The translations under genes were made by a program, and so were the position numbers. A stretch of DNA of 64,000 bases from contig CAYRUR010000002.1 in NCBI GenBank assembly GCA_964427615.1, positions 17,847 to 81,846 of the forward strand. The letters are read 5' to 3'. The notes beneath the pieces were generated by a model. It was not told the origin of the DNA and made no database searches. It worked only from the letters and a program-made list of their open reading frames with translations. This DNA comes from an uncultured Gammaproteobacteria bacterium (GTDB lineage: Bacteria > Patescibacteriota > Microgenomatia > Levybacterales > GWA1-39-11). Each line of letters begins with the position of its first letter. The stretch's first letter is position 1. Shown one piece after another: positions 1,008 to 27,118 of this stretch.

Positions 1008-2954
1008 GTGACTTTTGTGGCTAGAAAATATCCTACACGCAGAAAAGATCCTCCTCTTAAAATTACAGGCACACGAGGCTTTTCAAGAGGATGGAATACG
1101 CTTACTCATCCATCTACTATTAGGAATGACGAGTTAGCAGAAGCACAAAACGTACTGTACTCACAAAATGGTGTTCTTTCCAAAAGGCCGGGTTCAATCA
1201 ACATCGGCTCTGCAAGAGGAGCCTCAACTATTATTAATGCCTTATCAGGTGTTTATAGCATTGGTAATCCTGCAACAAACTATCTTTTAAGAATTTCCGA
1301 TGATGGAATACTACAAAAGTATAGCTTTGATTCTGATACATGGATTGATATTGCAGGAAGCCCAACCTTTTCCAATGTTGAAAGCACCATCTTACAAGCC
1401 TATGGGCACGCCTATATCCTCAACAAGAGTGATGCAATGGTGAAGTGGGACGGTTCATCCTTCTTTACTTTTACAGCTCTTGCCAATCCTACAACAGCCC
1501 CCACTCTTGCAAAAACAGGAAGCGCAACAGGAAATCGTTCATATTATTACCGCTATGTATGGTACAACGATGTGGGCAATACTATATATAGTGATTCGGC
1601 TCATTTGGACAATCTGCCTGATGAACTGGATGCTTCCACCTATGTCACACTTACGCTTCCCGCAGCTCCTGCAGGAGCAAAAAAGGTAGGTATATTTAGA
1701 GGTAGATTAGATACTGAAGAAGTATTTTATGATGAGATTCCGGCTACCCAAACAACATATACCGATAAAGGAACAGGAGAAGAAGATCCTCTCTATGGTA
1801 TTCCTACCTCTAACACTACCGGAGGATTTCACTTCAAGTTCGCAGATGTTTATAGAAATACTCTTATTGGAATTACTACAGAAATGGGAGATCACACCCT
1901 TGTATTTTCTGCAGGAGGAGATAAGTTTGACTCTTTTGGAAGAGCAGATGGCGGTGGATACTACTCATGGAGAAGGGATGATGGAGACCCTATTACTGCA
2001 GTACATTCTTTTCAGGAAAAACTATATGTTTTCAAGCATAGAAAGATAGGTGCGTTTGCTTTTGATGAAAATGGTGGAGCAGTAACTGATATTAATCTAG
2101 CAGTTGGAGCAGTCTCCCACAGGTCTGTTCATGCTGCAGGAAATGACTTACGCTTCTGGTCAAGAGATGGAGCCATGAGCCTTGGAAATGAACCTAACTT
2201 CGCTAACATCATCCGCACTCGCATACTATCTGCAAGGGCTGATAAGTTAGTCCAATCCTTAACTGCTGCAGAGTTTGAAAAGATTTCAGGTGTGTACTAC
2301 AAGAATTTATCCTTATGGGGAATTCCTACAGGTGGAGCAGATAAAGGTATTACCTCAACCATTATTTATGATGAACGGTATGTTGCTTGGAGTGAGTGGT
2401 TAGGACTAACTCCTAATATATGGTGCATCTACGTGAATGAAGACAACGAAGAAAAACTATATTACGGAGATGCGCAAAGTGGGCATGTAGTTGAGTGTTG
2501 GAGTGGTACACATGATAGGGGACAACCAATAGTGTGGCGTGTAGCAACAAAACAGTTTGATATGGATAAACCCTTTCAATACAAAACGTTCTCTACTGCT
2601 TATTTCATATTTGGAAACGTTGCAGGAACAGAAACTCGTATTACCTTAGTAGAAGATGGTGTTAGGTCACAAGTCCCTCTTGCTTTATATGCAGATCAAG
2701 GAAATCAAGGTTTTGGAGTAGATCAATGGGGAACAATGGAGTTTGGAGATACTTCAGGAGAATTTACAGGAGAAACATCAGGATTGTTAGTAAGATATCT
2801 CGATCTTGGAAACATAGATAGGTTATCTATGCAAGCTGTATTCCAGAATGCCGGGCTATCAGACAACATAGAACTTATGGGTGTGTACTTTGCCTATTCT
2901 GAAAGTTCTGCTCCTCTTCCGGGCTCTTATCAGCTGAAGAGAGTTGCTAATTAA
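1008..2954 (+). CDS. phage structural protein, possible T7 gp12-like tail tubular protein B (nozzle); GTG start
   Basis: 648 aa. N-terminal 'GFSRGWNTL...GVLSKRPG' resembles T7 gp12 'GSRQVNGWSSETEGLQKRPP'. GTG start directly after an in-frame stop, with a 'gaaggg' SD. Confidence 0.4.
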   Translation: MTFVARKYPTRRKDPPLKITGTRGFSRGWNTLTHPSTIRNDELAEAQNVLYSQNGVLSKRPGSINIGSARGASTIINALSGVYSIGNPATNYLLRISDDGILQKYSFDSDTWIDIAGSPTFSNVESTILQAYGHAYILNKSDAMVKWDGSSFFTFTALANPTTAPTLAKTGSATGNRSYYYRYVWYNDVGNTIYSDSAHLDNLPDELDASTYVTLTLPAAPAGAKKVGIFRGRLDTEEVFYDEIPATQTTYTDKGTGEEDPLYGIPTSNTTGGFHFKFADVYRNTLIGITTEMGDHTLVFSAGGDKFDSFGRADGGGYYSWRRDDGDPITAVHSFQEKLYVFKHRKIGAFAFDENGGAVTDINLAVGAVSHRSVHAAGNDLRFWSRDGAMSLGNEPNFANIIRTRILSARADKLVQSLTAAEFEKISGVYYKNLSLWGIPTGGADKGITSTIIYDERYVAWSEWLGLTPNIWCIYVNEDNEEKLYYGDAQSGHVVECWSGTHDRGQPIVWRVATKQFDMDKPFQYKTFSTAYFIFGNVAGTETRITLVEDGVRSQVPLALYADQGNQGFGVDQWGTMEFGDTSGEFTGETSGLLVRYLDLGNIDRLSMQAVFQNAGLSDNIELMGVYFAYSESSAPLPGSYQLKRVAN

Positions 2955-3623
2955 TTACCTGTTAAGACACTCTTTGTAAGCCTTTATGTGGATGTTAGTT
3001 GCTTCTGCCAGGCACTTTCTGTACTCCTCCGAGTCGTATCTAAACTCACTACTTATTACGGCACACTTATAGTTCTTTGAAGATGCAGCATTTTCTGCTT
3101 CTACCTTACATTGATTTGATTTGAGTATTATTGCGTCCTCTGTCTCAGGCAATTCTATGTTTGGTTCTGTTTTAGGAATAGGCACTCCCTCATACTTTAC
3201 TGTGGGAATAACTATCAAATCTCTTACACTTCTACGTGATCCTTGTATGAGTTTTTGTGCATACTCACACTCACTGTTACTGTGAGTTTTGTATATTTCT
3301 CCATCAATGATGCATTCAACATATGGATTTCGCTGGGTTGATGTTGGAACAGATTGTCTATTATTTAATGTTTCTTCAGGTTGAGTAGTAGAAAGATTTG
3401 TCTTTCTAGGAGCAGGGGTAAGCTCTTGGTATTTGTTTTGAGAGTCTGCTTTACTCCGATTCTCTTCAGAGTGAGTACCATTAACCGGAACCCCCGTAAT
3501 GTTTGACTTTGTTTTGTTAGGAATGTATGAGCCCACATATACAGCTAAAACAAGAAGCGCTGCAAGAGAAAGGAAGATAAGTTTGTTAGGTATTTTTATA
3601 TTCATTATTTTAGCAAGCCACAT
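2955..3623 (-). CDS. membrane-anchored Ser/Thr-rich protein with Cys-containing C-terminal domain
   Basis: 222 aa. N-terminal hydrophobic anchor (LIFLSLAALLVLAVYVG), low-complexity S/T/N/P linker, C-terminal domain with several Cys. Opposite strand to the flanking phage structural genes. Confidence 0.5.
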   Translation of the reverse strand: MWLAKIMNIKIPNKLIFLSLAALLVLAVYVGSYIPNKTKSNITGVPVNGTHSEENRSKADSQNKYQELTPAPRKTNLSTTQPEETLNNRQSVPTSTQRNPYVECIIDGEIYKTHSNSECEYAQKLIQGSRRSVRDLIVIPTVKYEGVPIPKTEPNIELPETEDAIILKSNQCKVEAENAASSKNYKCAVISSEFRYDSEEYRKCLAEATNIHIKAYKECLNR

Positions 3624-3677
3624 ATTTTAAATAGCGAGGTAGTCTAAGAATAGAGAAGCCATATTGCACATTAAAAG

Positions 3678-4352
3678 TTATTTAAAGAGTCCTCTAATCC
3701 AAGAGAGTACGCTTCTGACAACCATAAAAAGGGTAACAACCCCAATGTAGAGGAAGAAAATTACAACAATAATAAGTGAACCTGTTTCAAACAGAGTATC
3801 AGTTGTTGATTTCGTTGAGGTTAGAGTTAACTCTGGTGTAGGGGTTGGTGTAGGACTAGGTGGATACCATTGAGGAACTGTAATAGTCCAGTAGGCAACA
3901 GTTGACCATCTTCCACCAATCGTCTTTTTGACATTAACATACCATGTGCCCGGAGCAACATTCTCAAAGTAAAGGGGGTTACTAGTGAAATCTGTAAGTG
4001 GTCCAGGATCACATCCTGCACATTTACTGATTACAGCACTGTATGCAGTAAAGTTAGGATCTTTGACATCAAAAATAATATTGAAGGTTGATCCATCGTC
4101 ATTTGGAGATGGGTAGAACGATGCTTTGATGGTAGATGGATAAGTTGGAGGAGGAGGTACATAATAAGTATCTTCTTCATAAAAATACCCTCCTCCGCAT
4201 TTAGCAGATAAAGGGGTTCCATCACAACAAGAGGATCCACATACACCACCATGCCAAGAACAACAACCAGAACGGGCAGAAACAGAGGATGGAAGCATTG
4301 AAAAAATTATTAAGAAAGAAAAGAAGATTAATAATATTTTCAAAGTTTTCAT
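3678..4352 (-). CDS. secreted Cys-rich / Pro-rich protein with C-terminal TM anchor
   Basis: 224 aa. Signal peptide (MKTLKILLIFFSFLIIFSMLPSSVSA). Cys cluster CCSWHGGVCGSSCCDGTPLSAKCGGG. PPPPTYP and PSPTPTPTPE linkers. C-terminal hydrophobic helix. Confidence 0.55.
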   Translation of the reverse strand: MKTLKILLIFFSFLIIFSMLPSSVSARSGCCSWHGGVCGSSCCDGTPLSAKCGGGYFYEEDTYYVPPPPTYPSTIKASFYPSPNDDGSTFNIIFDVKDPNFTAYSAVISKCAGCDPGPLTDFTSNPLYFENVAPGTWYVNVKKTIGGRWSTVAYWTITVPQWYPPSPTPTPTPELTLTSTKSTTDTLFETGSLIIVVIFFLYIGVVTLFMVVRSVLSWIRGLFK

Positions 4353-4365
4353 TTAGATTTGTACA

Positions 4366-4839
4366 TTAAAAGTTGGAGAATATTTGCACAGCAACATCAT
4401 CTTTTGTTGCAATACAAGAATATTTGTATGGTTTTTCTAAAGCTTTTCTGTGAGAGGGTGAATTAAGCCATGATTCAAGAGCTTTATCGTTTTCATACGC
4501 ACGAAAAATCATATTTTCAGATAGAACATAAGGATAACTGTAATATTTATCACGAAATCCCTGATGGTTATCTTCGCCATCATCAACCCTATCTTGTGCA
4601 ATAACACAAAGTCTCTCATCTTTTATATATGGTTGAAAGCCTTGCGATACCCGCCATTCATTGACGAGTGCCGTAAGTTTTTCAGCAGAAAGATGAATAA
4701 CTACCTGTGTTGGAGTTGGGACAGTAGGTGTGCCATAAGAAGTGGGCATTACTGAAGGAAAAACAACAGTCAACATGGTAGCAATTCCTAGTAATAGGAA
4801 GGAAAAAATAAAAAACAATACCGCTATCTTCTTTTTCAT
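4366..4839 (-). CDS. CAP/SCP (PR-1/YkwD-like) domain protein with N-terminal signal/TM
   Basis: 157 aa. N-terminal TM. Motifs ...NHQGF...SWLNSPSHRKALEKPYKYSCIA... resemble the CAP-domain HxxN and S..H signatures. First gene of the minus-strand trio. Confidence 0.5.
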   Translation of the reverse strand: MKKKIAVLFFIFSFLLLGIATMLTVVFPSVMPTSYGTPTVPTPTQVVIHLSAEKLTALVNEWRVSQGFQPYIKDERLCVIAQDRVDDGEDNHQGFRDKYYSYPYVLSENMIFRAYENDKALESWLNSPSHRKALEKPYKYSCIATKDDVAVQIFSNF

Positions 4840-4856
4840 AAGCTTATAGTAAAAAG

Positions 4857-4886
4857 ATTATAGCAAAAAAGTAAAGGAAAGTAAAC
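4857..4886 (-). promoter_or_regulatory. sigma70-like promoter (minus strand: GTTTAC-18-TATAAT) driving the 4839<-2955 three-gene cassette; shares the divergent region with the 4888 gene
   Basis: Plus-strand 'gtaaac' (4881-4886) and 'attata' (4857-4862) give a minus-strand -35/-10 pair. The start codon lies about 18 nt downstream. Confidence 0.35.
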
Positions 4887-4887
4887 T

Positions 4888-6135
4888 ATGGCATTAATAC
4901 CAAGAATACAAGATCAATTTAACTGGTGGGATCCTCGTAAATATGAGTTTGGGCTTTCAGAGAAGTTGTCTGATGTCTTTGGTCAAGGAAGAACTGGTCA
5001 GGGAGGGTCTAACATGTTTGGCGATCAGTCAAAAACCACCTTAGTACCTGCCGGTATTTCTGCCAGTGGTCAAACAAAATTTGCTCCAATGGGACAATCT
5101 GGAGCTTATGGAAACACTCTTTATAATGCGAATAATAGACCTAATTACACCGCTTATAATGACACCTCTCCAGGTGGCAACACTAATACTTCTACAACCA
5201 ACCAAAACACCAACAGCACAGACGGAAACACAGGTTTTGTAGACTTGGCTGCTATGGAACGTGCTTCCAGACTAAATGCAATCCGCAACAACCTTAACTT
5301 CATAAAAGATCAGGTACAAAGAAGCATTGGTGAAGCAAGAGGAGTAAGAGATGAAGTAGTGGGCAACATTGGAAAAACCTACTCCAACCTCATAAAAGCA
5401 GCTGAAGGCAAAAGAGATACTTCTCTTGAAAATTTAGGACAAGAGGAAATAGACACTCAAAATACATACGGTAGAGCAAAAGGAAATGCAAGGAGAGCAA
5501 CACAAAGTGCATTACTTAAAAATAGATTAATGGCACGTGCTCTTAACCGTCTTGATTCTTCGTTTTATGAGGACAGACAGCATGAAACTAATTTAGAAGG
5601 AGCAAGAGCACAGTCCCAACTAGGAGACGAAGAAGCAGGAAAGCTTGCAGGAATAGGTACACGGAAAACTGAGGTAAAGAACTGGTTTGAACAACAATCA
5701 GCAAATATTGAACAAGAACGGGCACAACTCGAATCTGAAGCAGAGAGAGATTATCAAAGACAGGTTAATGCTGCACTTGATACTGAACGTGGTTTCTCTC
5801 TTGACTCAGTTGAACAAGCAGAGGAAGCAGAAAGAACTTTTGCTTCAAGACTGAATCAAATTAGAGAATATATTCAAGGCAAAGCATCACGTATCGCTGA
5901 AATTGCAGCTAGTGCAGGTAACTACGATCAATCCATTTCATCCTTTGAAGCTGTAAACCCCGCTCTAGCAAGAATTTTATCTAATATGCAAGGACTTAAT
6001 ATGGCTCAAAAAGTTATTGAAGGACTACCCACTTTTACTAATGTAACTGATTCTGGGCAAGACATAGGCTTTATGCGTGAAAGTAAGAGAGACGACTATG
6101 AAGAAAGGTTAAGAAGGTTTGGACTATTAGCATAG
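4888..6135 (+). CDS. phage virion protein (coiled-coil rich; possible internal virion/core protein)
   Basis: 415 aa. N/T/G-rich N-terminus then a long charged coiled-coil region. Sits between the gp12-like gene and the giant protein, as T7 gp13-15 do. Confidence 0.5.
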   Translation: MALIPRIQDQFNWWDPRKYEFGLSEKLSDVFGQGRTGQGGSNMFGDQSKTTLVPAGISASGQTKFAPMGQSGAYGNTLYNANNRPNYTAYNDTSPGGNTNTSTTNQNTNSTDGNTGFVDLAAMERASRLNAIRNNLNFIKDQVQRSIGEARGVRDEVVGNIGKTYSNLIKAAEGKRDTSLENLGQEEIDTQNTYGRAKGNARRATQSALLKNRLMARALNRLDSSFYEDRQHETNLEGARAQSQLGDEEAGKLAGIGTRKTEVKNWFEQQSANIEQERAQLESEAERDYQRQVNAALDTERGFSLDSVEQAEEAERTFASRLNQIREYIQGKASRIAEIAASAGNYDQSISSFEAVNPALARILSNMQGLNMAQKVIEGLPTFTNVTDSGQDIGFMRESKRDDYEERLRRFGLLA

Positions 6136-6147
6136 GAATTATGAAGT

Positions 6148-9100
6148 ATGGGTTTTTTAAACGATATCCTCAAGACTCTCAAGCGTAACACCCTTGATAA
6201 AACTGACCTTGACGAAAAGGCAGGAAGTTTCATATCCCAAAACGTAACTAGGCCGACAGTAAGAGGGTTGTCCGATATTAAGAACTTTATCAAAAGCCCT
6301 CAATCCATTGATTTACCTGAAGTTCCAGACTTTGCAAAGAGAGTAGGGGAGATAAATACGCCTTTTGGTAACTTCCAACCTCTTCCTTTTGTTCGTGATG
6401 TTGTTAATGAGCCTTTTAGTTTTGCTGCTAACACTGCATCTGACTTAGTACAAGCAGGAGTTAGGCTTGCCAAACAAAAACCCTACACACAATATCAAAA
6501 CCTCAAAAGTCCTGCTTCAAAGTTTGGATATAACATAGGGGCTCTTGCAAACCCTAGATTAAAAGAGCAGTTAGGTATTAAAAATAACCCTCAAGAAGTA
6601 ATAGCAAACGTTGCAGAAACAGTCATGGGTCCTCTATCAGTGTATGGGGGAGGAAAAATTTTTAGTACAGGAAAACAAGCACTGAAGCAATCAGGAGCAA
6701 AATCTCTGCGAAAAATACTAAAAAAAGAAGCGAAGATCAACGCCAAAATAGGTGGTTTTTATGGCTCTATGAGTGGGTTGGCAGAGGGACGAAATGATGA
6801 GTTGGGAGATCAACTTGTTAAAGGTGCAAGAGGTGGAGTAACTGGCATTATTGGAGGTGGAGCATTAGGAACCGCAATCCCCCTTGCAGGAGCAGGCACA
6901 AGACGTGCGTTAAACAGTCATAACAAAATGATGCGTGAGGAATCTCTTGAGCAATTTGCAAGAAACTTACCCAAATATTTAGAAACCCCTAAGCTGGATC
7001 CAGTTATTGCTAAATATAAGCGAGCATTGCAAGTTGATAAGCGTACAGCAAAAGAAATAAAGGAGGCAATATACCAAACATTTTCAGGGTACTTGGATAA
7101 AGGAGCTGATATACTAGACCGCTCAACAAAGGAATTTCTACCCCAATTTGATAACCTAGATCCAAGATCAAAAGCACATATTTGGGCTTATATCTTAGAC
7201 AGAAAGCAGAATCTAGGGAAAGTACCACCTCACCCACTTATTCAGGATTTGGATAACGCAATATTTAAAGTAGCAGGATTCGATGTTAGACAAAGTGGAA
7301 CTTTCGCAGGGCCAAAAGCTGCAGAATGGGCATTGAGAAAAACAGGAAAATTCACAAATCTTATGGACAAAAAACCACGTTTTGAGATTGATGATAGGAA
7401 ATCAAAGGTAGATTTGGGTGAAATATATACAAATGGATTTTACTCTGCAAGCTTAAATAAAGTACTCAAACACCCTGAATTGTTTAAACAATATCCAGAA
7501 CTTAAGGACATAAAAGTTAAGTTAGAGCCTCTAGATCTAGGAACAAATGGGTTTTATGATCCAAAAACAAATTCCATAACTATTAATGAGTTAGCAGTAG
7601 AAAGCGTTGACCCAAAACAGTTACTGCTTCATGAGGTTCAACATGTAATTCAAGGAATTGAGGGTTTTGCAAGAGGTGCAAGTGTTGGTATGGATGAAAA
7701 GGAGATTATAAGGAAATTCAGGCCAATGGTAGAGAATCTACCTGCATTCAGAGATTTAAAAACAGAGGTAGAAAAAAATGATTTCATTATCAATTTTGCA
7801 AGAAGTCAAACTAGATCTAACGACTTAAGAGAACTTGCTTATGATGCGTATAGGAAAAGTTCAGGAGAAATAGAATCTCGTTCTGTTGAGAACCGCATGG
7901 GTATGACACCTGAACAAAGAGCAACTACACTTCCTTACTCAGATCAAGGCATACCACTTAAAGACACCATTACACGACTTGATGACGGTTCTGTACAAGA
8001 AGATATCCCTCAAAACATACGAGAAATAGGAGGGAAAATAAAAGACTTTATTACTAGAAACTTCAGTAACAGGGAAAATACAAAACTTGAGTTATTTGAA
8101 GCACAGCCCAAAACAGTAGCTTTTATTCAAGAAAAGCTAGGTATTGATGTATCTAAATTTAAGCATACGATTGATAGTTTTGATGTTAGACATGCAACAA
8201 ATCGTCACTCAGCATTTAACAAAGGAAATCTTCAAAAAGGAGAAGTCCCTTTAACAATAGAAGACTTTGAAAATGTACCTCTTATACTTTCAAACCCTGA
8301 TAACATTAGACTTTCTTCAAAACCAACCAAACAGGGGAATTTTGCAATCATCTATCAAAAGAGAATTGGAAACGAAGTTTACTACGTGGAGGAAATACGA
8401 AACTCTTCAAGAACACTTGCATTAAAAACGATGTATAAACAAAAACCTTCCTCTGTAAGTTATAGTCTTGAAGACCCTAACTTTGTACGTCCGTCTGAAA
8501 AGACCCCGACTTCGGAAGGTAATGAAGGTATTATACCACAGGTTAGCAAGACTTCACAACCTATTAGTAACTTGGGGAATTTGTCCAGGCAACAGCTATT
8601 AAAAGTACAACCAAGAACAGTACGATTACAAGAACGATTGAACCCAAATAATCTTTCAAGTTCCAATCAGGTCCTTCCTGAAGTTCCCAGTAGTGTTTCA
8701 TTAAATGATAGTATACCACAGCTACCAGCACCTATGAATAGAATCGCTCTGCCAGGAGGGTTTGTCGCTAGAACTCCAGGAGAAGCAAAGCGTTTATTTA
8801 AAAAGACAGGACAAGCTCCTGAGTTAGATTTTTCTTTAAGAAATAGTAAAAAACCAATAGAAATAAAAGGGGAAGCTCAGTTCTATAATGCAGAACCAAA
8901 TTCAGCGAAACTTAAGATAAGATCACAAAAAGCAAAAGAGAATCAGTTTAAAACAGAGTTTGATGAATGGCAAGATCACTTATTTGATACCACAGGAGCT
9001 AGAACAGTAAAAGGAGCTATAGATGATGTGGCAAAGCTTATGGGAGAAGCAACAGAAGCAGGACAACGTAGAAGTTTTGAGAATACAAGCACAGGAAAAA

Positions 9101-11859
9101 TAATCAGTAACAAAGCAGGGCAGAAACTGCAAAAAGGATTTCTAGAAAGAGCTAAGAATTGGAAAGACAAACCAAAAGTTTTTTACGTAAGAGAACGTTT
9201 TGACAGAAACCTTGAAGATATAGCAGGAGAAGATGCGCCTATGCTTATCGAGAGGTATTTTAAACCAGTGCAAAAAGCAGAAGCTAACAGGCAAAGGTGG
9301 TTGAATCAAGAACGTACAGCAATCAAGAAACTTGACATCAAACCCGGTAGTGCAGAATCAAGAGTACTACAACTATATGGTGAAAGAAAGATGAGTCTTG
9401 ACAGACTTAAAAAAGAACTTCCTAATACTTGGCAAAAGGTAGTTGAGGCGGAAAAAATATTTAGAACAAAATATGACCAATACCTTGTTGATATCAATAA
9501 GGTGCTTGTGCGAAATGGATACGATCCCATTCCTAAAAGAAAAGACTACTTTATTCACTTTCATGATCTGAGCAATGTTTTAGAGCGGTTTGGTATTCCT
9601 GTACGAGACAACACCATTCCCACTGATATTTCAGGACTTACCGCAGACTTTAAACCAGGAAAAAACTTTTTCACCAGTGCACTCCCCAGAGAAGGAGACT
9701 TAACTGATTTTGACGCTGTTAAAGGTATGGACCGTTATCTTGAAGGAGCAAGCAAGCAGATTTTCCACACTGATAATATTCAGAATTTGAGATTATTTGA
9801 AAAGGGCTTAAGAGAACGATTTGCAGGCACAACTCACCTTTCTAATTTTGTTGCTGATCTAGGAGAATACATCAATAATTTAGCAGGCAAGAAATCAATG
9901 CTTGATAGAAGTGCTGAAGGATTAGTAGGTAGAAATGTCTATGCAGGAGCACAGCGAATTAGAAAACAGGTAGGAGCAAACATGGTGGGAGCTAATATAT
10001 CTTCTGCTTTAACAAATTCCATTCCTCTTACCCAATCTCTTGCTACAACTAGCAAACCAGCTTTTGTCAAAGGCATGTTAGGAGCTGTTATTTCTCCTTT
10101 AAAAAATGACGGATTTGCTCAAAAGTCAGACTTCTTAACAAGACGTTTTGGTTCAGATCCACTTTTTGTGAGAAATTGGGATAAGGTTGCAAATAAGGGT
10201 GCTTGGATTTTTAAAGTTGTTGATAGATTTGTCTCTGAAACCATTACTAGGGCAAAGTATCATGAAGGACTTTCAAAAGGCTTGTCTCCAGAACAAGCAC
10301 TTAAAAGAGCAGATGATTACGCATCACGCTTAATAGGGGATAGGTCTCTTGGTTCACAACCAACCTTATTTGACTCAAAAACAGCTGGATTTCTTACTCA
10401 ATTTCAACTTGAAGTTAACAACCAAGTATCAGTACTTATGAAGGATATCCCTCGCATGAATGAGGGAAACAAAGTAGCCATAGCTTCTGCATTAGGACAA
10501 GTGGCACTCTATTCCTATCTTTATAACAACCTCTATGAAAGCTTTTTTGGCAGAAGACCTGCTTTTGATCCATTAGGAGTAGGTATACAGGCATATGAGG
10601 ACTATACCAACCCCGATATGAAGGAAGGGCAGGCTACCAAAAACACTGCAATAAACATTGCAAGCCAACTTCCCTTTACCTCTGTTCTCACAGGAGGTAG
10701 ATTGCCTACTAATGCAGCTCTTCCCGATGTTTCTGCTCTTGTAAAAGGAGAGACAAGCGTAGGTAAAGAGTTGCTAAAGCCGGTAACCTACATATTTCCT
10801 CCCACAGGCGGAGGGCAGATTAAGAAAACAATCGAAGGAATTGGTGCATTTGCACAAGGTGGAAGTGTCAGCAAATCAGGGAGAGTGCGTTATCCTATTG
10901 AGCAAACGCCTGGTAATTTTCTAAGAACTGCCATTGGTGGGCAATACGCTTTACCACAAGCAAGAGAATACTTTAGAGAAGGAAGAACTCCTTTAGGTGA
11001 AGCTCAATCTGAAGCATTCCTAAATACACCTATAGATCAAAAGCAAGCTTTTTACGATACGATTATGCAGCAAAGAGCAGATAAAAGAGAGGATGACAGA
11101 ATAAATGATGCAATTAAATCTAATGGAGATGTATCACAGACAGGAGATATAATACGCTGGCTGGATGAAGAAGGAAGTGTTCAAACAGTAGATCTCTCAG
11201 AAAAAGCCATCTCTACCACCAAAAAAGGAATTGACGCCTATGATAAAGATAGTAGTAATAGCCCTGCTGCTAAAGCACGTAAAATCTTTTCTGCACCAGA
11301 GGATCAAGTATCCTCAGAACAAAAAGAGGCAATCTATAAAAAGTTTGGGTTCACAGCAGAAGATGTGCGCTACGACTATATCTCTCAAGATAAATTCTCC
11401 AACGATGAAAGAACTGCATATATTGTTGATAAAGATCTTAGCCATGATGAGCTTGTTGAGCGCATCTTAACAGGTAGACGGGAAAGTATCTCAGGTAAGA
11501 TGTTTGTGAGGGATGGAGTAATTGATAATTTGCGAGATTTAGGACTACTTAGCTACGGTGAGGCAAAACAACTAAAAGCAATTAAACTAGATAAAGATGG
11601 AAAAGCAAAAACAGGTTCAGGAAGAAAAGGATCAAATAAACAACTAAAAGCTATATTAAAATCAAAACAACAGGATGCAAAAGAATTGTCAGAACTTTTT
11701 GGATCACTTACTAAAAGCTCAGAAGGTAAAGCGAGAAGATCAAAAGCAGTAAATTTGGCGAGTGTACTTAATACAAAAAATAGTAATACTTCCTCTAAAA
11801 AACGCATAGAAGACGTATTGCGCCAAAAGCGTAAAATCGCTCCTATCAACTCAATATAG
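6148..11859 (+). CDS. giant phage internal virion/ejection protein (1903 aa) with HExxH zinc-metallopeptidase-like motif
   Basis: Uninterrupted 5.7-kb ORF. HEVQH motif encoded around 7630-7644. Lys-rich C-terminus. Position equivalent to T7 gp16 or a tape-measure protein. Confidence 0.7.
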   Translation: MGFLNDILKTLKRNTLDKTDLDEKAGSFISQNVTRPTVRGLSDIKNFIKSPQSIDLPEVPDFAKRVGEINTPFGNFQPLPFVRDVVNEPFSFAANTASDLVQAGVRLAKQKPYTQYQNLKSPASKFGYNIGALANPRLKEQLGIKNNPQEVIANVAETVMGPLSVYGGGKIFSTGKQALKQSGAKSLRKILKKEAKINAKIGGFYGSMSGLAEGRNDELGDQLVKGARGGVTGIIGGGALGTAIPLAGAGTRRALNSHNKMMREESLEQFARNLPKYLETPKLDPVIAKYKRALQVDKRTAKEIKEAIYQTFSGYLDKGADILDRSTKEFLPQFDNLDPRSKAHIWAYILDRKQNLGKVPPHPLIQDLDNAIFKVAGFDVRQSGTFAGPKAAEWALRKTGKFTNLMDKKPRFEIDDRKSKVDLGEIYTNGFYSASLNKVLKHPELFKQYPELKDIKVKLEPLDLGTNGFYDPKTNSITINELAVESVDPKQLLLHEVQHVIQGIEGFARGASVGMDEKEIIRKFRPMVENLPAFRDLKTEVEKNDFIINFARSQTRSNDLRELAYDAYRKSSGEIESRSVENRMGMTPEQRATTLPYSDQGIPLKDTITRLDDGSVQEDIPQNIREIGGKIKDFITRNFSNRENTKLELFEAQPKTVAFIQEKLGIDVSKFKHTIDSFDVRHATNRHSAFNKGNLQKGEVPLTIEDFENVPLILSNPDNIRLSSKPTKQGNFAIIYQKRIGNEVYYVEEIRNSSRTLALKTMYKQKPSSVSYSLEDPNFVRPSEKTPTSEGNEGIIPQVSKTSQPISNLGNLSRQQLLKVQPRTVRLQERLNPNNLSSSNQVLPEVPSSVSLNDSIPQLPAPMNRIALPGGFVARTPGEAKRLFKKTGQAPELDFSLRNSKKPIEIKGEAQFYNAEPNSAKLKIRSQKAKENQFKTEFDEWQDHLFDTTGARTVKGAIDDVAKLMGEATEAGQRRSFENTSTGKIISNKAGQKLQKGFLERAKNWKDKPKVFYVRERFDRNLEDIAGEDAPMLIERYFKPVQKAEANRQRWLNQERTAIKKLDIKPGSAESRVLQLYGERKMSLDRLKKELPNTWQKVVEAEKIFRTKYDQYLVDINKVLVRNGYDPIPKRKDYFIHFHDLSNVLERFGIPVRDNTIPTDISGLTADFKPGKNFFTSALPREGDLTDFDAVKGMDRYLEGASKQIFHTDNIQNLRLFEKGLRERFAGTTHLSNFVADLGEYINNLAGKKSMLDRSAEGLVGRNVYAGAQRIRKQVGANMVGANISSALTNSIPLTQSLATTSKPAFVKGMLGAVISPLKNDGFAQKSDFLTRRFGSDPLFVRNWDKVANKGAWIFKVVDRFVSETITRAKYHEGLSKGLSPEQALKRADDYASRLIGDRSLGSQPTLFDSKTAGFLTQFQLEVNNQVSVLMKDIPRMNEGNKVAIASALGQVALYSYLYNNLYESFFGRRPAFDPLGVGIQAYEDYTNPDMKEGQATKNTAINIASQLPFTSVLTGGRLPTNAALPDVSALVKGETSVGKELLKPVTYIFPPTGGGQIKKTIEGIGAFAQGGSVSKSGRVRYPIEQTPGNFLRTAIGGQYALPQAREYFREGRTPLGEAQSEAFLNTPIDQKQAFYDTIMQQRADKREDDRINDAIKSNGDVSQTGDIIRWLDEEGSVQTVDLSEKAISTTKKGIDAYDKDSSNSPAAKARKIFSAPEDQVSSEQKEAIYKKFGFTAEDVRYDYISQDKFSNDERTAYIVDKDLSHDELVERILTGRRESISGKMFVRDGVIDNLRDLGLLSYGEAKQLKAIKLDKDGKAKTGSGRKGSNKQLKAILKSKQQDAKELSELFGSLTKSSEGKARRSKAVNLASVLNTKNSNTSSKKRIEDVLRQKRKIAPINSI

Positions 11860-13979: not shown

Positions 13980-14237
13980 ATGGCAAAAATTGAACTTGAA
14001 CTATTAGAAAAACTCTTTGACGCAAAACTTGCGCCTATTGCTGAAGATGTTAAGAACATTAAACAAGCAATTAACGGTAATGGCAAACCGGGACTTAAAC
14101 AGAGAGTAATGACACTTGAGGATCAACACCAAGGTATCACAAAGAAGTTTGCTATTGCTACAGGCGTGCTTAGTCTCACTCTTATGACAGTTTTTGAAAT
14201 AGGAAGAAAGTTCTTAGAGAAAAAAATAGGATTATGA
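13980..14237 (+). CDS. small protein with C-terminal TM helix; holin/lysis-associated candidate
   Basis: 85 aa. Hydrophobic segment ATGVLSLTLMTVF. Sits immediately upstream of the amidase gene, overlapping it by ATGA. Confidence 0.35.
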   Translation: MAKIELELLEKLFDAKLAPIAEDVKNIKQAINGNGKPGLKQRVMTLEDQHQGITKKFAIATGVLSLTLMTVFEIGRKFLEKKIGL

Positions 14238-15391
14238 AAAAAGTTTGTATTGCAGTAGGACATTGGAATATAGAAGGTATAACCTCACAAGGTCTTAGAA
14301 AGTGGAGAAGGGTAGATGCGCTTAAAAAATCTACTGGTGCAAGTGGGGAGCGGAATTATCACTGGGATAAAGTTATGCCTCTATTGAGAGATAAGCTTAT
14401 CAAAGCAGGAATTCAAGTACATATTACTGATGCTATATACAGTAATGACATATACAAACAAGACTACGACTTATTAATTGCACTCCATTATGATGGTGGA
14501 GGGACTGAAAATAGGTGCATGATTTCCTCTCCCTTAAGAGGCGTAAATCCTCCTTACCTATATAAAGAAGCCCATGACAAAGCGGATGAATTCTGTCGAA
14601 TTTGGAAAGAGATTTACCCTGCCATGACAGGAGCCATTAATAGAGATAATCGCATTACTGCTGGCATGACAGAGCATTATTTATGGGATTACGTGAAAGA
14701 AGGTACTCCCGCAGTTCTTATTGAACACTTTAACCATACCTCCGCAAAAGGACAAGAACTTAAGAATAATCCAGGGTTAGTAGCAGAAGCAGATTTTCAA
14801 GCAATAGTTAAATTTTTAGGTATTCAAGTAGAAAGCCCTAAACCTCAACAAGAACCAACAATGACTATCTCAGTAGTTGAGCGTGATTGGTTAGTGAGTC
14901 GTGCAACAACCGCCAAAGAAGTTGCCCAGTACCTAGAGATAGACAACCCAGACCATGCCCCCTTTGACACCTATAAAAAAGTAATTGCAGGTATCAAAAG
15001 TACTGCTACAGCAATCCAAACGCAACTTACGGATACTCTCGAAAAACTTGCTGAAGCAACTCAGGAAATAGCCAATAGAAAAGAACAGGTTAGCAGGTTA
15101 GAAAACCTAGTGACAGAGAAGCAAAAATACTATTTAGCCCAGATTGATAGTCTAAATAAGAACTTCAAAAACACCCCAGAACTGATGAGGGTAGCAGAGG
15201 GCAGGATAGCAGCACTGGAAGGGCAGTTAGATCAAGCACAAAAAGACAAAGGGAAGGCATTAAATCAGGTAGCAATACTACAAGCAAGCCTTGATGCATG
15301 TCAAAAGGCGAATACTCAAAAACTTGATACAAATACTCTCATTGTGGAGCTTATTAAAAGGGTTATTCCATTGGTTAAAAAAGGACTATGA
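14234..15391 (+). CDS. putative endolysin: N-acetylmuramoyl-L-alanine amidase (Amidase_3-like) with long C-terminal coiled coil
   Basis: CIAVGHWN, LIALHYDGG and VLIEHFNHTS resemble the Amidase_3 Zn-ligand blocks. C-terminal ~180 aa is heptad-rich. Confidence 0.5.
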   Translation: MKKVCIAVGHWNIEGITSQGLRKWRRVDALKKSTGASGERNYHWDKVMPLLRDKLIKAGIQVHITDAIYSNDIYKQDYDLLIALHYDGGGTENRCMISSPLRGVNPPYLYKEAHDKADEFCRIWKEIYPAMTGAINRDNRITAGMTEHYLWDYVKEGTPAVLIEHFNHTSAKGQELKNNPGLVAEADFQAIVKFLGIQVESPKPQQEPTMTISVVERDWLVSRATTAKEVAQYLEIDNPDHAPFDTYKKVIAGIKSTATAIQTQLTDTLEKLAEATQEIANRKEQVSRLENLVTEKQKYYLAQIDSLNKNFKNTPELMRVAEGRIAALEGQLDQAQKDKGKALNQVAILQASLDACQKANTQKLDTNTLIVELIKRVIPLVKKGL

Positions 15392-15651
15392 ATATTGTCA
15401 GATCAATCAATAACAAAAAATACAGGGCTGTTAGAGCTGAGAAGCAAGGGGAGGATGTAGCTGTCTATTATAGACTGGTCTACTTCACAGGTGAAGTAAG
15501 AAAAATGCTTGGCATACCATACCACGTACTACTTGCAGCAATACGCAATCTAAACATTAAGCGAGCTGGTAGGGATTATCTATTAACTCAAGACGACATT
15601 AAAAAAATTAAAAAAGTGATTGGAGGTGATAAGCATGAGATTACCAACTAG
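15388..15651 (+). CDS. small phage protein, possible HTH DNA-binding (Xis/terminase-small-like)
   Basis: 87 aa. 'MLGIPYHVLLAAIRNLNIKRAGRDYLLTQDDIKKI' looks like a helix-turn-helix. ATGA overlap with the upstream gene. Confidence 0.35.
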   Translation: MNIVRSINNKKYRAVRAEKQGEDVAVYYRLVYFTGEVRKMLGIPYHVLLAAIRNLNIKRAGRDYLLTQDDIKKIKKVIGGDKHEITN

Positions 15652-15883
15652 AGATAGCGCAGCAGGAAAAGGAATTGCAACAGCATTACAAGCCCTGTGT
15701 GGCTTTATATTTGGCTTGGTGTTAGTTGTATGGAACGTGCCAGGAGTACCACAAGCAGTCTTTGGGTACGTACAGAATAACGTAATTGCATTAATTATGT
15801 TTTTCGGAGTTCCAATGGCAATAGCATCAGGAGTTGTAGGTTTTGTTATGAACCTTATTAGAGAAGAAGTTAAAAACTACTAA
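15635..15883 (+). CDS. small membrane protein (2 predicted TM; holin/spanin-like candidate)
   Basis: ORF-track 15620..15883. The internal ATG at 15635 is preceded by a ggaggtga SD. Two hydrophobic helices. Confidence 0.4.
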   Translation: MRLPTRDSAAGKGIATALQALCGFIFGLVLVVWNVPGVPQAVFGYVQNNVIALIMFFGVPMAIASGVVGFVMNLIREEVKNY

Positions 15884-16262: not shown

Positions 16263-16655
16263 ATGGTAAGACGCAAAGAACACTTTCCCCGACACGTAAG
16301 ACGGGAAATGCGTCAGGAACAAGACTATGCCTGTGCTATTTGTGGCACTTCTTGTCGAGGACATAAATTCAATGAACCACCCCTAGAAGCTCATCACATC
16401 ATCCCTGTTAGTAAAGGTGGAACTCACGAAAAACATAATTGTGTAGGGTTATGTAACGAGAATTCATGCCATGAAACAGCTGATTATGTAGCGATTAAAG
16501 AAGGAAAATTCTTTGATGAAGTAGTAATGACTGAGGGAGTTGAATATTATTTAAATCATCCGATGAGAGAGGTATTTATGGATAGAAGGAGACGGAGAGA
16601 GTTAGTTAGGATGAACGAAATTAGGGATGAGTTGTATTCGATGGTGGCGGATTAG
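16263..16655 (+). CDS. HNH endonuclease
   Basis: CAICG...HHIIPVSKGGTHEKHNCVGLCNENSCH is the HNH/Cys-box motif. gaaggagg SD. Such genes typically sit at a phage genome end near packaging genes. Confidence 0.75.
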   Translation: MVRRKEHFPRHVRREMRQEQDYACAICGTSCRGHKFNEPPLEAHHIIPVSKGGTHEKHNCVGLCNENSCHETADYVAIKEGKFFDEVVMTEGVEYYLNHPMREVFMDRRRRRELVRMNEIRDELYSMVAD

Positions 16656-16719
16656 TAGTAATTCAAGATGCTACTAAGATATCAGTAGCATTAATAGTAG
16701 TAATTATAGGCAGTTTGCG

Positions 16720-16737
16720 AGTGACATTGATGTCACT
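16720..16737. repeat. perfect palindrome AGTGACAT-TG-ATGTCACT, flanked by 11-bp direct repeats TAGTAGTAATT (16656-16666 and 16696-16706)
   Basis: Read directly. Lies just after the HNH stop at the edge of the phage module. Confidence 0.6.
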
Positions 16738-16894
16738 ACCAAATAAGACCCTAGAGTAAAATAAACCTTTCAAAAATCAGGTTCAAATACACAGCTATAA
16801 ATAACTCTCCCTATACCCTTTTCTAAGGCAGTAATTGATAGAGTAGTCCTACTCAAACTAAATAAGCTTTTCACACGCCTTTTAGCCTCAGAAT

Positions 16895-16924
16895 TTGACA
16901 TATTATGATCTGGTTATATATAAT
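16895..16924 (+). promoter_or_regulatory. near-consensus sigma70 promoter TTGACA-18-TATAAT
   Basis: TTGACA at 16895-16900, TATAAT at 16919-16924. Followed by the aaaggaggtga SD and a small ORF. Confidence 0.5.
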
Positions 16925-16951
16925 CCCGCCCTTGAAAGGAGGTGATGTAAA

Positions 16952-17098
16952 GTGTTCATGACGTTATTTAAAATTCAAAGGTATTGCATAGGTCGTGAAA
17001 AGTCAGCATCCACAAACCAACAAAAAGCCGTTTGGAGCCTAAGTGGGGGAATTTCAAGGTCATTGTTTTATGTTTATTTAGCAATTTTTAAATATTAA
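16952..17098 (+). CDS. small ORF (~48 aa, GTG start; alternative ATG at 16958) downstream of a strong promoter and SD
   Basis: VFMTLFKIQRYCIGREKSASTNQQKAVWSLSGGISRSLFYVYLAIFKY. Not in the ORF track (<60 aa). The expression signals are unusually strong for a 'non-coding' region. Confidence 0.25.
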   Translation: MFMTLFKIQRYCIGREKSASTNQQKAVWSLSGGISRSLFYVYLAIFKY

Positions 17099-17902
17099 AA
17101 CAATAAGGAAAATAAACCTGCCCATATTTTCCCTCTTGACATTTGCACGCTTATGTCGTAAAAGTATTATTGTGCGACATATTATATTGTACTATCCTAC
17201 TGGGTAAGAGTAGTATTTTTTAATGCAACATATTCGTTTCATTCTTATTACAAATACACATTATTTGTGGTACCGAGAGGTATAATTTTGCTCCTATCTT
17301 ATACCTCTCTCAAGGGTCTTTTCGTAAGGCCCAAATGATACAAAAAAAGTAAGAAAATTAAGGCAGATAGCACTCCATAAGGTAATATGTTAAATATAAT
17401 TTACATCACTCGTTTGGAGCATAAAATCAGTGTTTTTTGAATATTTAGCTTCAAATTTTAGTAGAATAGTACCTTTTGTAAAGAGGTAGATGAGGCTAAA
17501 ATGTAAAAGCTTGTTCGATTTTTTTTCGTATTACACTCGGCAAAGAGAAAGAGATAAAAATATCACATGCAGCTACATACTGACAAGGGCGTGAAAACTC
17601 GCCTCTTTGTACCTGTGAAAAGTGAAGTTTTCCACATTATTAAAATTATAGGTCTATTTTATTTATTATAGGTCTATATTTTGATAGTATCAAACTATAT
17701 CATCTTACTCCCCTCTCCTACTCATTTCTCCCCTCTATTCTGCTCGTTTTCTAAGTACAAATCAGGTACAAAATTATTTTCAAAAAATCCTTTATTTGAA
17801 AATAAAAAAGATACACCTTCCAAATGCTTAAAGATAGCTAGAATTAGCCCTCAACATCCATATCCACTCTCTACCCCAAAATCTAGGTTCAAATAGGTTC
17901 AA

Positions 17903-18300
17903 AAAATGAGTATTAAGTATTAAGAAGTAAGTATAGAAAGAAATTCAAAACGCAAAAGTAAAAAGTCAAAAGTTTTGAAATAAACTTCCACCTTATAAAA
18001 TTTGTCATTCCAGACTTGATCTGGAATCCATGTCTTCATTCTCTGGATCCTGGATCAAGTCCAGGATGACATATTTATGTTTGTTTTAATAACTGTTCTA
18101 AACCCCAACCGCTAAACACTTGTTTTCTATGCTCTATTTTCTGTTTACTGCTTTCTGACTTCTTTTCATTCTTAAATCTTGAATCATAAATCCTAAATCT
18201 TATTTTCTGTTCTCTGTTTACTGTTTACTGTTTTCTTTTCCTAATTCTTAATTCATAATTCTTAATTCGTTTCTCTAATCCCTAATCTCTAAACACTCCT
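17903..18300. repeat. composite intergenic word-repeat element, long copy (gagtattaagtatta / aaaacgcaaaag / ttctgtt-ctctgtttactg / cttaaatc / cttaattcataattc / ctctaatccctaatc modules), including the hairpin element 18004-18070
   Basis: Homologous module by module to 40908-41068, 44921-45100 and 49385-49635. Confidence 0.6.
18004..18070. repeat. MITE-like double-hairpin element GTCATTCCAGA...TCCAGGATGAC
   Basis: Imperfect terminal inverted repeats (gtcattccaga / tccaggatgac). Two perfect 7-bp stems: TTCCAGA-cttga-TCTGGAA and TCCTGGA-tcaag-TCCAGGA. Confidence 0.55.
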
Positions 18301-18313
18301 TTACTTCCCACCG

Positions 18314-26563: not shown

Positions 26564-27118
26564 TTATGCTCTTTTGGTATAACTTCCGTCCCGAGTATCA
26601 ACTACAACCTTATCATCTACTTCAATAAAAAGAGGAACTCTTACCTTCATGCCATTTTCCAGCACTGCGTCTTTATACACATTACTAGCTGAATCCCCTC
26701 TCACTCCCGGTGCAGTATCTACAATTTTCATGGTTACTTTTGGAGGAAGCATCAGACCCAAAGGTTCTTCCTGATAAAATTGTACGGTAGCCGTATCTCC
26801 TTCTACAAGAAATTCATGGCCTGGTAATAGCGAAATTTCCACTTGAATTTGTTCGTACGTTTCAGGATCCATAAAGTAAGCATTCTCATCATCTTTATAC
26901 AAAAACTGAAGCTCTCTTTTCTGGACATGTATGTTCTGCACTTGTGCTCCACTTATATATCCTCTCTCAACAATAGAGCCACTTCTGATATTGCGCACCT
27001 TTACTTTAATATTGGCAGAACCCCTTCCCATTTTAATGTGCTCATAAGATAGCACTTGGTAGATGTGTCCGTCCTCCTCGTAAGCAGTCCCTGCTCGTAG
27101 CTCTGTAACAGAAATCAT
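26564..27118 (-). CDS. efp: translation elongation factor P
   Basis: 184 aa. KVKVRNIRSGSIVERGY... and the KOW/OB architecture are typical of EF-P. Confidence 0.9.
   Translation of the reverse strand: MISVTELRAGTAYEEDGHIYQVLSYEHIKMGRGSANIKVKVRNIRSGSIVERGYISGAQVQNIHVQKRELQFLYKDDENAYFMDPETYEQIQVEISLLPGHEFLVEGDTATVQFYQEEPLGLMLPPKVTMKIVDTAPGVRGDSASNVYKDAVLENGMKVRVPLFIEVDDKVVVDTRDGSYTKRA

Follow-up and report, generated by a model that had tools for sequence, protein, structure and literature searches.

Morons of temperate phages, such as bor and lom of lambda and gtrABC and sieA of P22, encode envelope proteins, lie between conserved late genes, have host-type promoters of their own and are absent from or replaced in close relatives. 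The known exclusion proteins Sie2009 (Lactococcus), Ltp (S. thermophilus TP-J34), T5 Llp and P22 SieA are small, prophage-expressed, membrane-tethered and outward-facing. The first three, of ~140-220 aa, combine an N-terminal anchor or signal with an outward globular domain; they are encoded in prophages, and their transcription is separate from that of the late genes. Bacterial CAP/SCP proteins, among them Borrelia BB0689 (4d53), S. aureus SAV1118 (4h0a), a B. anthracis protein (4ifa) and the Bacillus YkwD family, are extracytoplasmic and share an alpha-beta-alpha fold, a cavity lined by His, Glu and His, and a WLNSPSH motif. Dis2 of Legionella pneumophila (Lpg0823), a subunit of the outer-membrane cap in Dot/Icm, a type IV secretion system (T4SS; 7MUC), carries two copies of a module that comes directly after the signal peptide and has abundant disulfide-forming Cys (PMC8486379); the T4SS does not require Dis2 (PMC12716638).

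The locus described here shares features with each of these systems. It lies in a window of 64,000 nucleotides (the whole stretch of DNA that was analysed), within the plus-strand structural genes of an SU10-like prophage, where the ORF scan recovered three minus-strand ORFs exactly where the original prediction had placed them: P1 (2955-3623, 222 aa), P2 (3678-4352, 224 aa) and CAP (4366-4839, 157 aa). The genes are tightly packed, as had been proposed, with spacers of 54 nt between P1 and P2 and 13 nt between P2 and CAP, and the ORF scan found no plus-strand ORF longer than 54 aa beneath them. On the left, the stop codon of P1 abuts, with 0 intergenic bases, that of a convergent plus-strand nozzle-like structural gene (1008..2954, 648 aa); the succession of an SU10_adaptor gene and a nozzle homologue was found in 88 loci. 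On the right, 48 nt separate the CAP start from a divergent plus-strand gene encoding 415 aa, which together with the gene for a giant protein of 1903 aa occupies 4888..11859. The giant protein contains a PBECR3 nuclease and a DUF6782 peptidase-like domain, and the two genes presumably form an ejection or internal-protein operon, so that the cassette sits between the nozzle gene and this presumed operon.

The third protein is a true CAP/SCP protein, in agreement with the initial assignment. Pfam PF00188 matches its residues 57-134 above threshold (E=3.5e-5, 25.1 bits, gathering cut-off 21.1) and is a precomputed assignment on four of its homologues, the AlphaFold model (pLDDT 91.3) is an alpha-beta-alpha sandwich for which Foldseek ranks 4h0a, 4ifa and 4d53 first (E=3e-7 to 1e-5) and PR-1 and GAPR-1 next, and a PDB profile search retrieved BB0689 at E=4.9e-4. 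The protein scored 26.2 bits with the NCBIfam model TIGR02909 (spore_YkwD), far under the cut-off of 171, and in PHROGs the CAP cassette has only a marginal match, to an SCP 'sporulation protein' family (E=0.022). Across the family (n=26), C78, C142, H92, E108, N109 and H130 are invariant in the 25-26 aligned members; in an alignment with BB0689, H92, E108 and H130 fall on its HxxF, E and SPSH motifs, which places three residues of the cavity tetrad (two His, two Glu). The fold, the His/Glu/His cavity residues, the WLNSPSH motif and a predicted extracytoplasmic location are shared with bacterial CAP/SCP proteins. The window protein differs from them in being phage-borne and in its minimal build, a single CAP domain (residues ~50-157) behind a signal anchor (2-26) and a Pro/Thr stalk (~28-47), and it shares only 19-23% identity with the bacterial structures that have been solved. 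It begins with MKKK and a hydrophobic segment of 23 residues, and an N-terminal hydrophobic segment is a conserved trait of the family; strongly hydrophobic and seemingly uncleaved, the N-terminus argues for a protein that is tethered rather than released. CAP proteins of phages had been called rarely described, and database searches fit this: tblastn with CAP and P2 gave 0 matches in 50,697 deposited phage records, and BFVD holds only a few SCP-domain entries. A scan of a genome collection found a single CAP copy, truncated and without obvious synteny, on a contig labelled Gammaproteobacteria.

P2 had been described as a Cys-cluster and Pro-linker protein with a C-terminal anchor, and all of these elements are present. 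A signal peptide with a predicted cleavage site between VSA and RS, after residue 26 (29 homologues all have Ala at -1), is followed by a Dis2-lobe-like module (~29-52), an fn3-like beta-sandwich (~62-165), a PSPTPTPTPE stalk and, by hydropathy, a C-terminal transmembrane segment at 191-215. The sandwich is modelled with pLDDT 94-98 and the Cys module with low confidence (pLDDT ~50); the fn3 fold matches to residues 62-165 are weak and mutually consistent. The P2 family comprises 61 matches, 28 of them near full length, and its profile aligns with both lobes of Legionella Dis2 (7MUC chain AN, E=3.8e-15) in two stretches, one per lobe. The family module follows the pattern GCCSxxGG...C...DG..S..C, of which the window protein has a shortened variant with 6 Cys and without the central CDxSxGR insert. 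As in Dis2, the Cys-rich module directly follows the signal peptide; unlike Dis2, P2 has one copy rather than two, fused to the fn3-like domain and a membrane anchor, and neither the window nor the related loci examined contain T4SS genes. The Dis2 disulfide module, called species-specific in the literature, is seen here as a widespread N-terminal module of secreted proteins. In ~90 phage loci, P2-type or Dis2-module proteins were found only three times, in the window, L010 and L097, each time directly downstream of CAP; two of the three have the Dis2 motif and the L010 protein has an alternative His/Cys motif. L008, an integrative element unrelated to the phage, also couples a P2 homologue with a Peptidase_S26-CAP fusion.

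In P1, a signal anchor (residues 15-33) leads into ~70 aa of polar stalk, and the C-terminal ectodomain contains three C-x14-C pairs (C104/C119, C172/C187 and C204/C219). Of its earlier description as a TM-anchored, S/T-rich protein, the anchor holds, but Ser and Thr together make up only 15% of the residues, so that S/T-rich is an overstatement. No homologue was found by a word-indexed search of 5.8 billion clustered proteins or by a full HMMER scan of 1.84 billion representatives, and there was no significant match in Pfam, PHROG, NCBIfam, PADLOC or the PDB. One further match is weak and limited to the TM region, and the PDB matches to Hsp70 lids, at E=0.04 or worse, are not significant. P1 is accordingly an ORFan; it is probably a real gene, in view of how long the ORF is for AT-rich DNA and of the absence of any alternative ORF.

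Hydropathy and family conservation, on which the export and anchor calls are based, give a secretion or anchor signal in each of the three proteins, conserved in the CAP and P2 families, consistent with the claim that all three are exported; all three also have predicted Cys-containing ectodomains. The CAP fold and the domains of P2 would suit display on the cell surface. In public annotation, the genes for CAP and P2 begin at an internal Met and so lack the signal sequences, so that automated surveys would miss the surface nature of both proteins.

A promoter of the cassette's own had been placed at about 4857-4886, and a promoter-like site is present at 4885-4857 on the minus strand, with a -35 box TTTACT (4885-4880), a 17-nt spacer and an extended -10 box TGcTATAAT (4865-4857); the pattern scan scored it 10/12 plus the extended TG. 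A second -10-like box, TACTAT (4851-4846), lies 6 nt 5' of the CAP ATG. Such promoter-like sites are no more frequent in the region than in shuffled sequence (34 observed, 46.7 expected), and a lone match is therefore not above chance. The significance of the motif comes instead from comparison with relatives: TGnTATAAT precedes 9 of 12 CAP genes by no more than 30 nt (in the window and in L001, L004, L009, L010, L011, L039, L073 and L097) versus 11 of 1137 other phage genes (1%). In the relatives it usually lies 6-8 nt 5' of the CAP start codon, compared with 17 nt in the window. A -10 box abutting the ATG is likewise found at several cellular genes of the window and at the genes that occupy the same position in L013, L026 and L041. 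Shine-Dalgarno-like motifs precede 8 of 10 plus-strand phage genes and none of the three cassette genes. Several host genes share this position of the -10 box against the start codon, which suggests that the cassette is transcribed by the host polymerase into leaderless or short-leader mRNA.

The slot between the nozzle gene and the presumed ejection operon is empty or differently filled in close relatives, and the cassette is therefore not a conserved structural block. A wider sample of IMG/VR loci retrieved by the nozzle gene (n=56) mostly has no divergent gene in the slot; CAP occupies it in ~4 of 56 and small divergent membrane proteins in ~4 more. Roughly 90% of these nozzle-retrieved relatives lack CAP, as do three of the four closest. 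In L014 and L015 (nozzle 62% identical), the slot is a 251-bp gap with a two-TM ORF of 68-73 aa, in L013 (69%) it is filled by a DUF5658 membrane protein, and in L097 (70%) it contains CAP together with a tRNA and a Dis2-module protein other than P2. The identity of CAP does not follow that of the nozzle (Spearman -0.02, 45 pairs): the window and L097 share 47% in CAP and 70% in the nozzle, the window and L001 52% in CAP and 20% in the nozzle. As judged from these comparisons, CAP is a recurrent occupant of the slot across a wide clade and not a one-off insertion; its recurrence in distant relatives could alternatively reflect a conserved infection-cycle function that is often lost.

Measured against classical morons, the cassette is alike in lying between conserved late genes of a temperate phage, in being absent or replaced in close relatives, in the host-type promoter motif of its own and in encoding predicted envelope proteins. 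It departs from them in other respects. The pattern scan found no minus-strand terminator-like hairpin 3' of P1, the sole minus-strand terminator-like match in the cassette (3743-3730) lying inside P2; without a terminator after P1, the cassette transcript would continue antisense into the nozzle gene. Composition is not distinct from the flanks either, with GC 0.36-0.39 and GC3 0.25-0.31 in the cassette genes and GC 0.38-0.41 and GC3 0.26-0.28 in the flanking genes, and thus leaves no trace of recent acquisition relative to the neighbouring phage genes. Further differences are that the slot is common to a whole clade and refilled by the same CAP family, that the predicted transcripts are seemingly leaderless or nearly so, and that none of the proteins is homologous to a characterised moron product. 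With secretion or anchor signals on all three proteins, a promoter motif conserved among CAP genes and a variable slot in close relatives, the original prediction of a moron is supported.

That the phage lineage is temperate is supported by the tyrosine integrase in L097 and by the window itself, which joins the phage to cellular genes starting at ~18.3 kb. The host is probably a small-genome bacterium of Patescibacteria type, judging by DUF5656 and by the names that certain P2 relatives bear. Phages of Patescibacteria-like bacteria have been seen almost exclusively in metagenomes, with their lysogeny cargo still uncharacterised; the locus represents a comparatively validated accessory slot with a recognisable host-type promoter motif, supplies concrete candidate genes for exclusion or conversion and places the CAP/SCP domain in a mobile, repeatedly exchanged phage context.

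The cassette is very probably an independently transcribed operon of accessory surface proteins. With moderate confidence, we read the region as a hypervariable moron, or accessory, locus carried by a temperate SU10-like podophage, with exclusion as its most likely role; the assignment to phage exclusion specifically is tentative and falls somewhat short of an even chance. We infer co-transcription, membrane topology, expression in lysogens and exclusion function along the following lines. From the extended -10 host-type promoter (4885-4857), transcription would proceed through CAP, P2 and P1, antiparallel to and independent of the late structural operons, and yield an mRNA with a short leader or none. 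The proteins would be inserted by the Sec pathway and remain tethered to the cytoplasmic membrane with stalked, disulfide-bearing ectodomains facing outward, CAP by its uncleaved N-terminus, P1 by its N-terminal anchor and P2 by its C-terminus, which would put the Dis2-like knot and the fn3-like domain at the tip. CAP and the Dis2-module protein may work as a pair, and the three proteins would alter the lysogen surface so as to keep related phages from adsorbing or from ejecting their genomes (superinfection exclusion or receptor masking). The likeness to Sie2009, Ltp and T5 Llp is in architecture only: there is no sequence or family match, three proteins are present here, and one has a CAP fold, which to our knowledge has never been linked to superinfection exclusion. 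Searches of PHROGs and PADLOC likewise revealed no resemblance of CAP, P2 or P1 to known Sie or defence families.

A lysogenic conversion that serves the lifestyle of the host, with the proteins serving as adhesins or modulating contact between cells, for instance when an episymbiont attaches to its partner, is unlikely but draws on several observations. In eukaryotes, CAP proteins frequently take part in interactions between cells or between host and parasite. P2 is built like an adhesin, with its disulfide module at the distal end, followed by the fn3-like domain, the stalk and the anchor, and P2 homologues are also the cargo of non-phage integrative elements (L007, L008 and L094) in similar genomes, where the genes beside P2 show no similarity to each other, to P1 or to CAP. 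Moreover, the Dis2 module forms protein-protein contacts in the Legionella T4SS cap (PMC8486379; PMC12716638). Against this, both the identity and the lifestyle of the host are only inferred, and the slot of relatives also holds tiny polytopic proteins (the DUF5658 protein and the two-TM 68-aa ORF) that cannot be adhesins.

We consider it distinctly unlikely that the cassette acts in the lytic cycle, with early expression from the host-type promoter preparing the envelope, saving progeny from loss to debris (as T5 Llp does) or aiding egress, in which case CAP would be a semi-conserved gene of the infection cycle and not prophage cargo. Such a role would fit the position of CAP, which in 10 of 12 CAP-bearing loci, despite genome rearrangements, lies immediately upstream of and divergent from an operon of a ~350-430-aa gene and a giant gene; the promoter is as compatible with early as with lysogenic expression. 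However, the rarity of CAP among nozzle-retrieved and closest relatives and its uncoupling from nozzle similarity argue against it, as do the Amidase_2 gene elsewhere in L097 and two candidate lysis genes in the window, small plus-strand TM ORFs at 13980-14237 and 15620-15883. The separate Amidase_2 gene and the late-strand TM ORFs also make a lysis cassette unlikely, and we know of no muralytic activity of the CAP fold.

There is a further reading, a long shot, in which CAP and a Dis2-module membrane protein constitute an unrecognised two-component surface system, borne by mobile elements of ultra-small bacteria under leaderless host-type promoters, that either excludes phages at ejection or reprogrammes episymbiont attachment. 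Exclusion at the ejection step would explain why CAP stays linked to the ejection-protein operon, and the system would provide the first defined function for a bacterial CAP domain and for the Legionella Dis2 fold.

It is improbable that the proteins are secreted or displayed effectors, with CAP as a metal-dependent enzyme or lipid binder acting on the host's own or a partner's envelope and P2 and P1 as accessory or targeting factors. The invariance of H92, E108, H130, C78 and C142 in 25 family members and the alignment of the cavity residues with BB0689 would suit such a role, and in L008, an integrative element unrelated to the phage, the P2 homologue adjoins a Peptidase_S26-CAP fusion; yet we know of no established biochemical role or enzymatic activity for bacterial CAP domains, and the hydrophobic, uncleaved-looking N-terminus favours tethering. 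Finally, although the genes lie within the structural module between the nozzle and ejection-protein genes, it is highly improbable that they encode virion structural or assembly proteins merely written on the opposite strand, given the Sec-type signals or membrane anchors on all three, their absence from close relatives that share the same structural genes, their own predicted promoter without the Shine-Dalgarno motifs of late genes and the lack of any PHROG structural family match.

Two observations concern other parts of the window. The 385-aa protein encoded at 14234-15391 resembles, by eye and at its N-terminus, an Amidase_3 endolysin, an assignment that Pfam and PDB searches do not support. 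Rfam returned no match above threshold for the 1.65 kb at 16.66-18.31 kb, which contain no ORF.

The window opens inside a phage, in which genes for an SU10-type adaptor (285-968; Pfam SU10_adaptor) and a 648-aa nozzle-like protein (1008-2954) precede those for a 415-aa protein (4888-6135), a giant protein of 1903 aa (6148-11859) with a PBECR3 nuclease and a DUF6782 peptidase-like domain, tail-fibre-like proteins and an HNH endonuclease (16263-16655), all on the plus strand. A second, independent assembly of the same phage reaches further left, where it encodes a major capsid protein of SU10 type and a portal. From ~18.3 kb the phage genes are joined to cellular ones (DUF5656, YebC, DnaB, CysRS, an aminopeptidase and tRNAs), so that the phage appears to be integrated in a cellular genome. 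Three minus-strand ORFs, CAP (4366-4839), P2 (3678-4352) and P1 (2955-3623), lie between the nozzle and 415-aa genes exactly where the original prediction placed them, with spacers of 54 nt and 13 nt and with the P1 stop abutting the nozzle-gene stop at zero gap. Public gene predictions begin CAP (136 aa, P0001) and P2 (206 aa, P0027) at internal methionines, dropping the CAP signal anchor and the P2 signal peptide; conservation of the full-length N-termini among homologs shows that the longer predicted forms are the right ones. A 16-mer, TTG[C/T]ACATTAAAAGTT (repeat family D16), occurs at the 3' ends of P2 (3664-3679) and CAP (4359-4374), straddling or just following the stop codons, and may reflect chance or a shared intercistronic signal.

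The proposed CAP domain was recovered by Pfam (25.1 bits, threshold 21.1). In each of the 26 clustered proteins of the family, a variable Pro/Thr-rich linker joins an N-terminal hydrophobic segment to the conserved domain, with C78, C142, H92, E108, N109 and H130 invariant. Among PDB structures, the confident AlphaFold model (pLDDT 91.3) was closest to bacterial SCP/CAP proteins (4h0a, 4ifa and Borrelia BB0689), with plant PR-1 and GAPR-1 next; a profile search likewise retrieved BB0689, with which the WLNSPSH motif is shared. CAP does not fall in the spore YkwD subfamily, had no match among 50,697 deposited phage records, and BFVD holds only a few SCP entries. Among species-representative genomes the CAP family was matched only once, by a truncated copy that lies at the beginning of a contig labelled uncultured Gammaproteobacteria (L093, 947-1231) and has no obvious synteny to these phages.

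In the P2 family (61 matches), the aligned sequences open with a signal peptide whose Ala at -1 is invariant (VSA|RS); next come a Cys-rich module and a conserved ~100-aa domain, and a PTPTPT stalk then leads to a C-terminal hydrophobic anchor. Longer relatives have, in addition, another TM segment and an Excalibur domain. The structural model contains a confident beta-sandwich (pLDDT 94-98), with consistent but weak matches to fn3 domains, and a poorly modelled Cys module that has no Pfam counterpart. The family profile matched both lobes of the Legionella Dot/Icm T4SS protein Dis2 (Lpg0823; PDB 7MUC chain AN) with E = 3.8e-15, and the GCCSWHGG module, at residues ~29-52, is homologous to both. 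Dis2 consists of two similar lobes pinned by five disulfides, without structural relative or known function (PMC8486379), is dispensable for T4SS function (PMC12716638) and has been called species-specific in the literature. Many secreted proteins are headed by a Dis2-like module, with SNase, TIG, fn3, Excalibur or MopE as partner domains, and some P2 homologs carry a His-rich HSGRTDSSGGH...YHYHNGG motif in its place. P1 has a predicted signal anchor and a polar stalk, together with three cysteine pairs of C-x14-C spacing, and is an ORFan, with no homologs in two very large protein searches.

Relatives were gathered through CAP and, independently of it, through the nozzle protein (80 IMG/VR loci). 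In the latter set, searching with profiles placed CAP within 10 kb at no more than 6 loci, and P2 at none. In the four closest relatives (nozzle 62-70% identical) the adaptor, nozzle, 415-aa homolog and giant genes follow one another as in the window, with differing content in the slot after the nozzle gene: a 251-bp gap with a minus-strand two-TM ORF of 68-73 aa in L014 and L015, a divergently encoded DUF5658 membrane protein alongside two additional genes on the plus strand in L013, and, in L097, CAP, a tRNA-Asp and a 173-aa protein with a signal peptide, a Dis2 module and two C-terminal TM segments. The tRNA-Asp (11428-11502) lies on the CAP strand within the variable slot; a small DUF5658 membrane protein is encoded in the slot upstream of the 415-aa homolog in both L013 (5834-6133) and L026 (10512-10790). 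The order of the structural genes changes in more distant relatives. Even so, in 10 of 12 CAP loci CAP is directly upstream of, and divergent from, an operon of a 350-430-aa gene and a giant gene, the exceptions being L027 (same strand) and L090 (elsewhere). Most loci lack a divergent gene in the slot. CAP and nozzle identities are uncorrelated (Spearman -0.02, 45 pairs): the window CAP is 52% identical to that of L001, with nozzles only 20% identical, and 47% identical to that of L097, with nozzles 70% identical. Because its identity does not track that of the nozzle, CAP behaves, on these comparisons, like exchangeable cargo and not like a core structural gene; a structural role of the cassette proteins is unlikely. 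L097 also bears a tyrosine integrase and a separate Amidase_2 gene, indicating that the lineage is temperate and that lysis in L097 is provided for elsewhere, and a lysis role of the cassette is likewise unlikely.

Across all phage loci fetched, P2-type N-terminal motifs (Dis2-type GCCSxHGG, or the alternative HPGNTASD type of L010) were confined to the gene that immediately follows CAP, namely the window P2, the L010 P2 homolog and the L097 173-aa protein. Beyond phages, three small integrated elements with large serine recombinases carry P2 homologs as cargo (L007, 10001-10927; L008, 10001-12652; L094, 10001-10642). In L008 an acidic lipoprotein gene comes next after the homolog, and a membrane Peptidase_S26-CAP fusion is encoded two genes downstream of it; the other P2 neighbours across the three elements are unrelated to one another.

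The promoter proposed upstream of the cassette is present (TTTACT, 17 nt, TGcTATAAT; 4885-4857, minus strand); not significant alone, it becomes so by comparison with relatives. In L001, L004, L009, L010, L011, L039 and L097, TGnTATAAT precedes the CAP start codon by 6-8 nt; in L073 it directly adjoins the called start. The frequency of the motif in these loci is 3.8e-5 per nucleotide, and just 11 of 1137 other phage genes carry it in the 30 nt before their start. Other slot genes share this layout as far as their promoters are recognisable: perfect TTGACA-17-TATAAT, 6 nt and ATG in L013, TGnTATAAT 6-7 nt before the start codon in L026 and L041, and only a weaker extended -10-like TGTTATCAT, ~5 nt before ATG, in L014. 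The L026 DUF5658 gene, like that of L013, has a consensus promoter ending 6 nt before ATG. A -10 box so near ATG implies, from standard promoter geometry, a leaderless mRNA. For the window CAP, a strong -10 at 17 nt and a weaker TACTAT at 6 nt upstream argue for a short or absent leader. Several cellular genes of the window show the same -10 layout, for example 59275-60375, 51069-52511 and 19332-20069 (minus strand) and 60486-61076 and 58321-59274 (plus strand). In many such genes, also including 27115-28629 and 36651-38048 (minus) and 43626-44918 and 50625-51044 (plus), a -10 box (TAnAAT, several with upstream TG) ends 6-10 nt before ATG and a Shine-Dalgarno is absent, from which leaderless mRNAs seem common in the host. 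SD-like motifs precede 8 of 10 plus-strand phage genes and none of the cassette genes, whose signals are thus host-style, unlike those of late genes.

The cassette is best read as an accessory operon, transcribed independently, whose three products would be tethered to the lysogen membrane with stalked, disulfide-containing ectodomains facing outward. As its purpose we favour exclusion or receptor masking against related phages, since the architecture agrees with that of known exclusion proteins, tiny polytopic membrane proteins take the slot in some relatives, the signals are host-type, and CAP keeps its linkage to the presumed ejection-protein operon. Possible alternatives to exclusion or masking are adhesion or symbiosis-related conversion, an early role in the lytic cycle and an effector function of CAP. 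The cassette joins the morons encoding envelope proteins, a known kind; new are the CAP domain as phage-borne cargo, its repeated association with a P2-type or Dis2-module protein, a promoter signature of leaderless type at the slot, and the extension of the Dis2 fold beyond Legionellales.

In the giant protein, the DUF6782 metallopeptidase-like region spans residues 438-518 and the PBECR3 toxin-type nuclease domain 660-768; its relatives, 1000 to 2669 aa long, are similar in patches only. The 1.65 kb that separate the HNH gene from the first cellular gene (16660-18310) have no sizeable ORF, only sub-threshold Rfam matches and no identified att site, and may be the prophage end; they contain a perfect TTGACA-18-TATAAT (16895-16924, plus strand) and a hairpin of ~100 nt (17983-18090). 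The N-terminus of a 385-aa protein (14234-15391) resembled an Amidase_3-type lysin by eye, an assignment for which Pfam and PDB searches returned nothing. Its gene is flanked by small plus-strand TM ORFs (13980-14237, 85 aa; 15620-15883, 87 aa) that could be holin-like.
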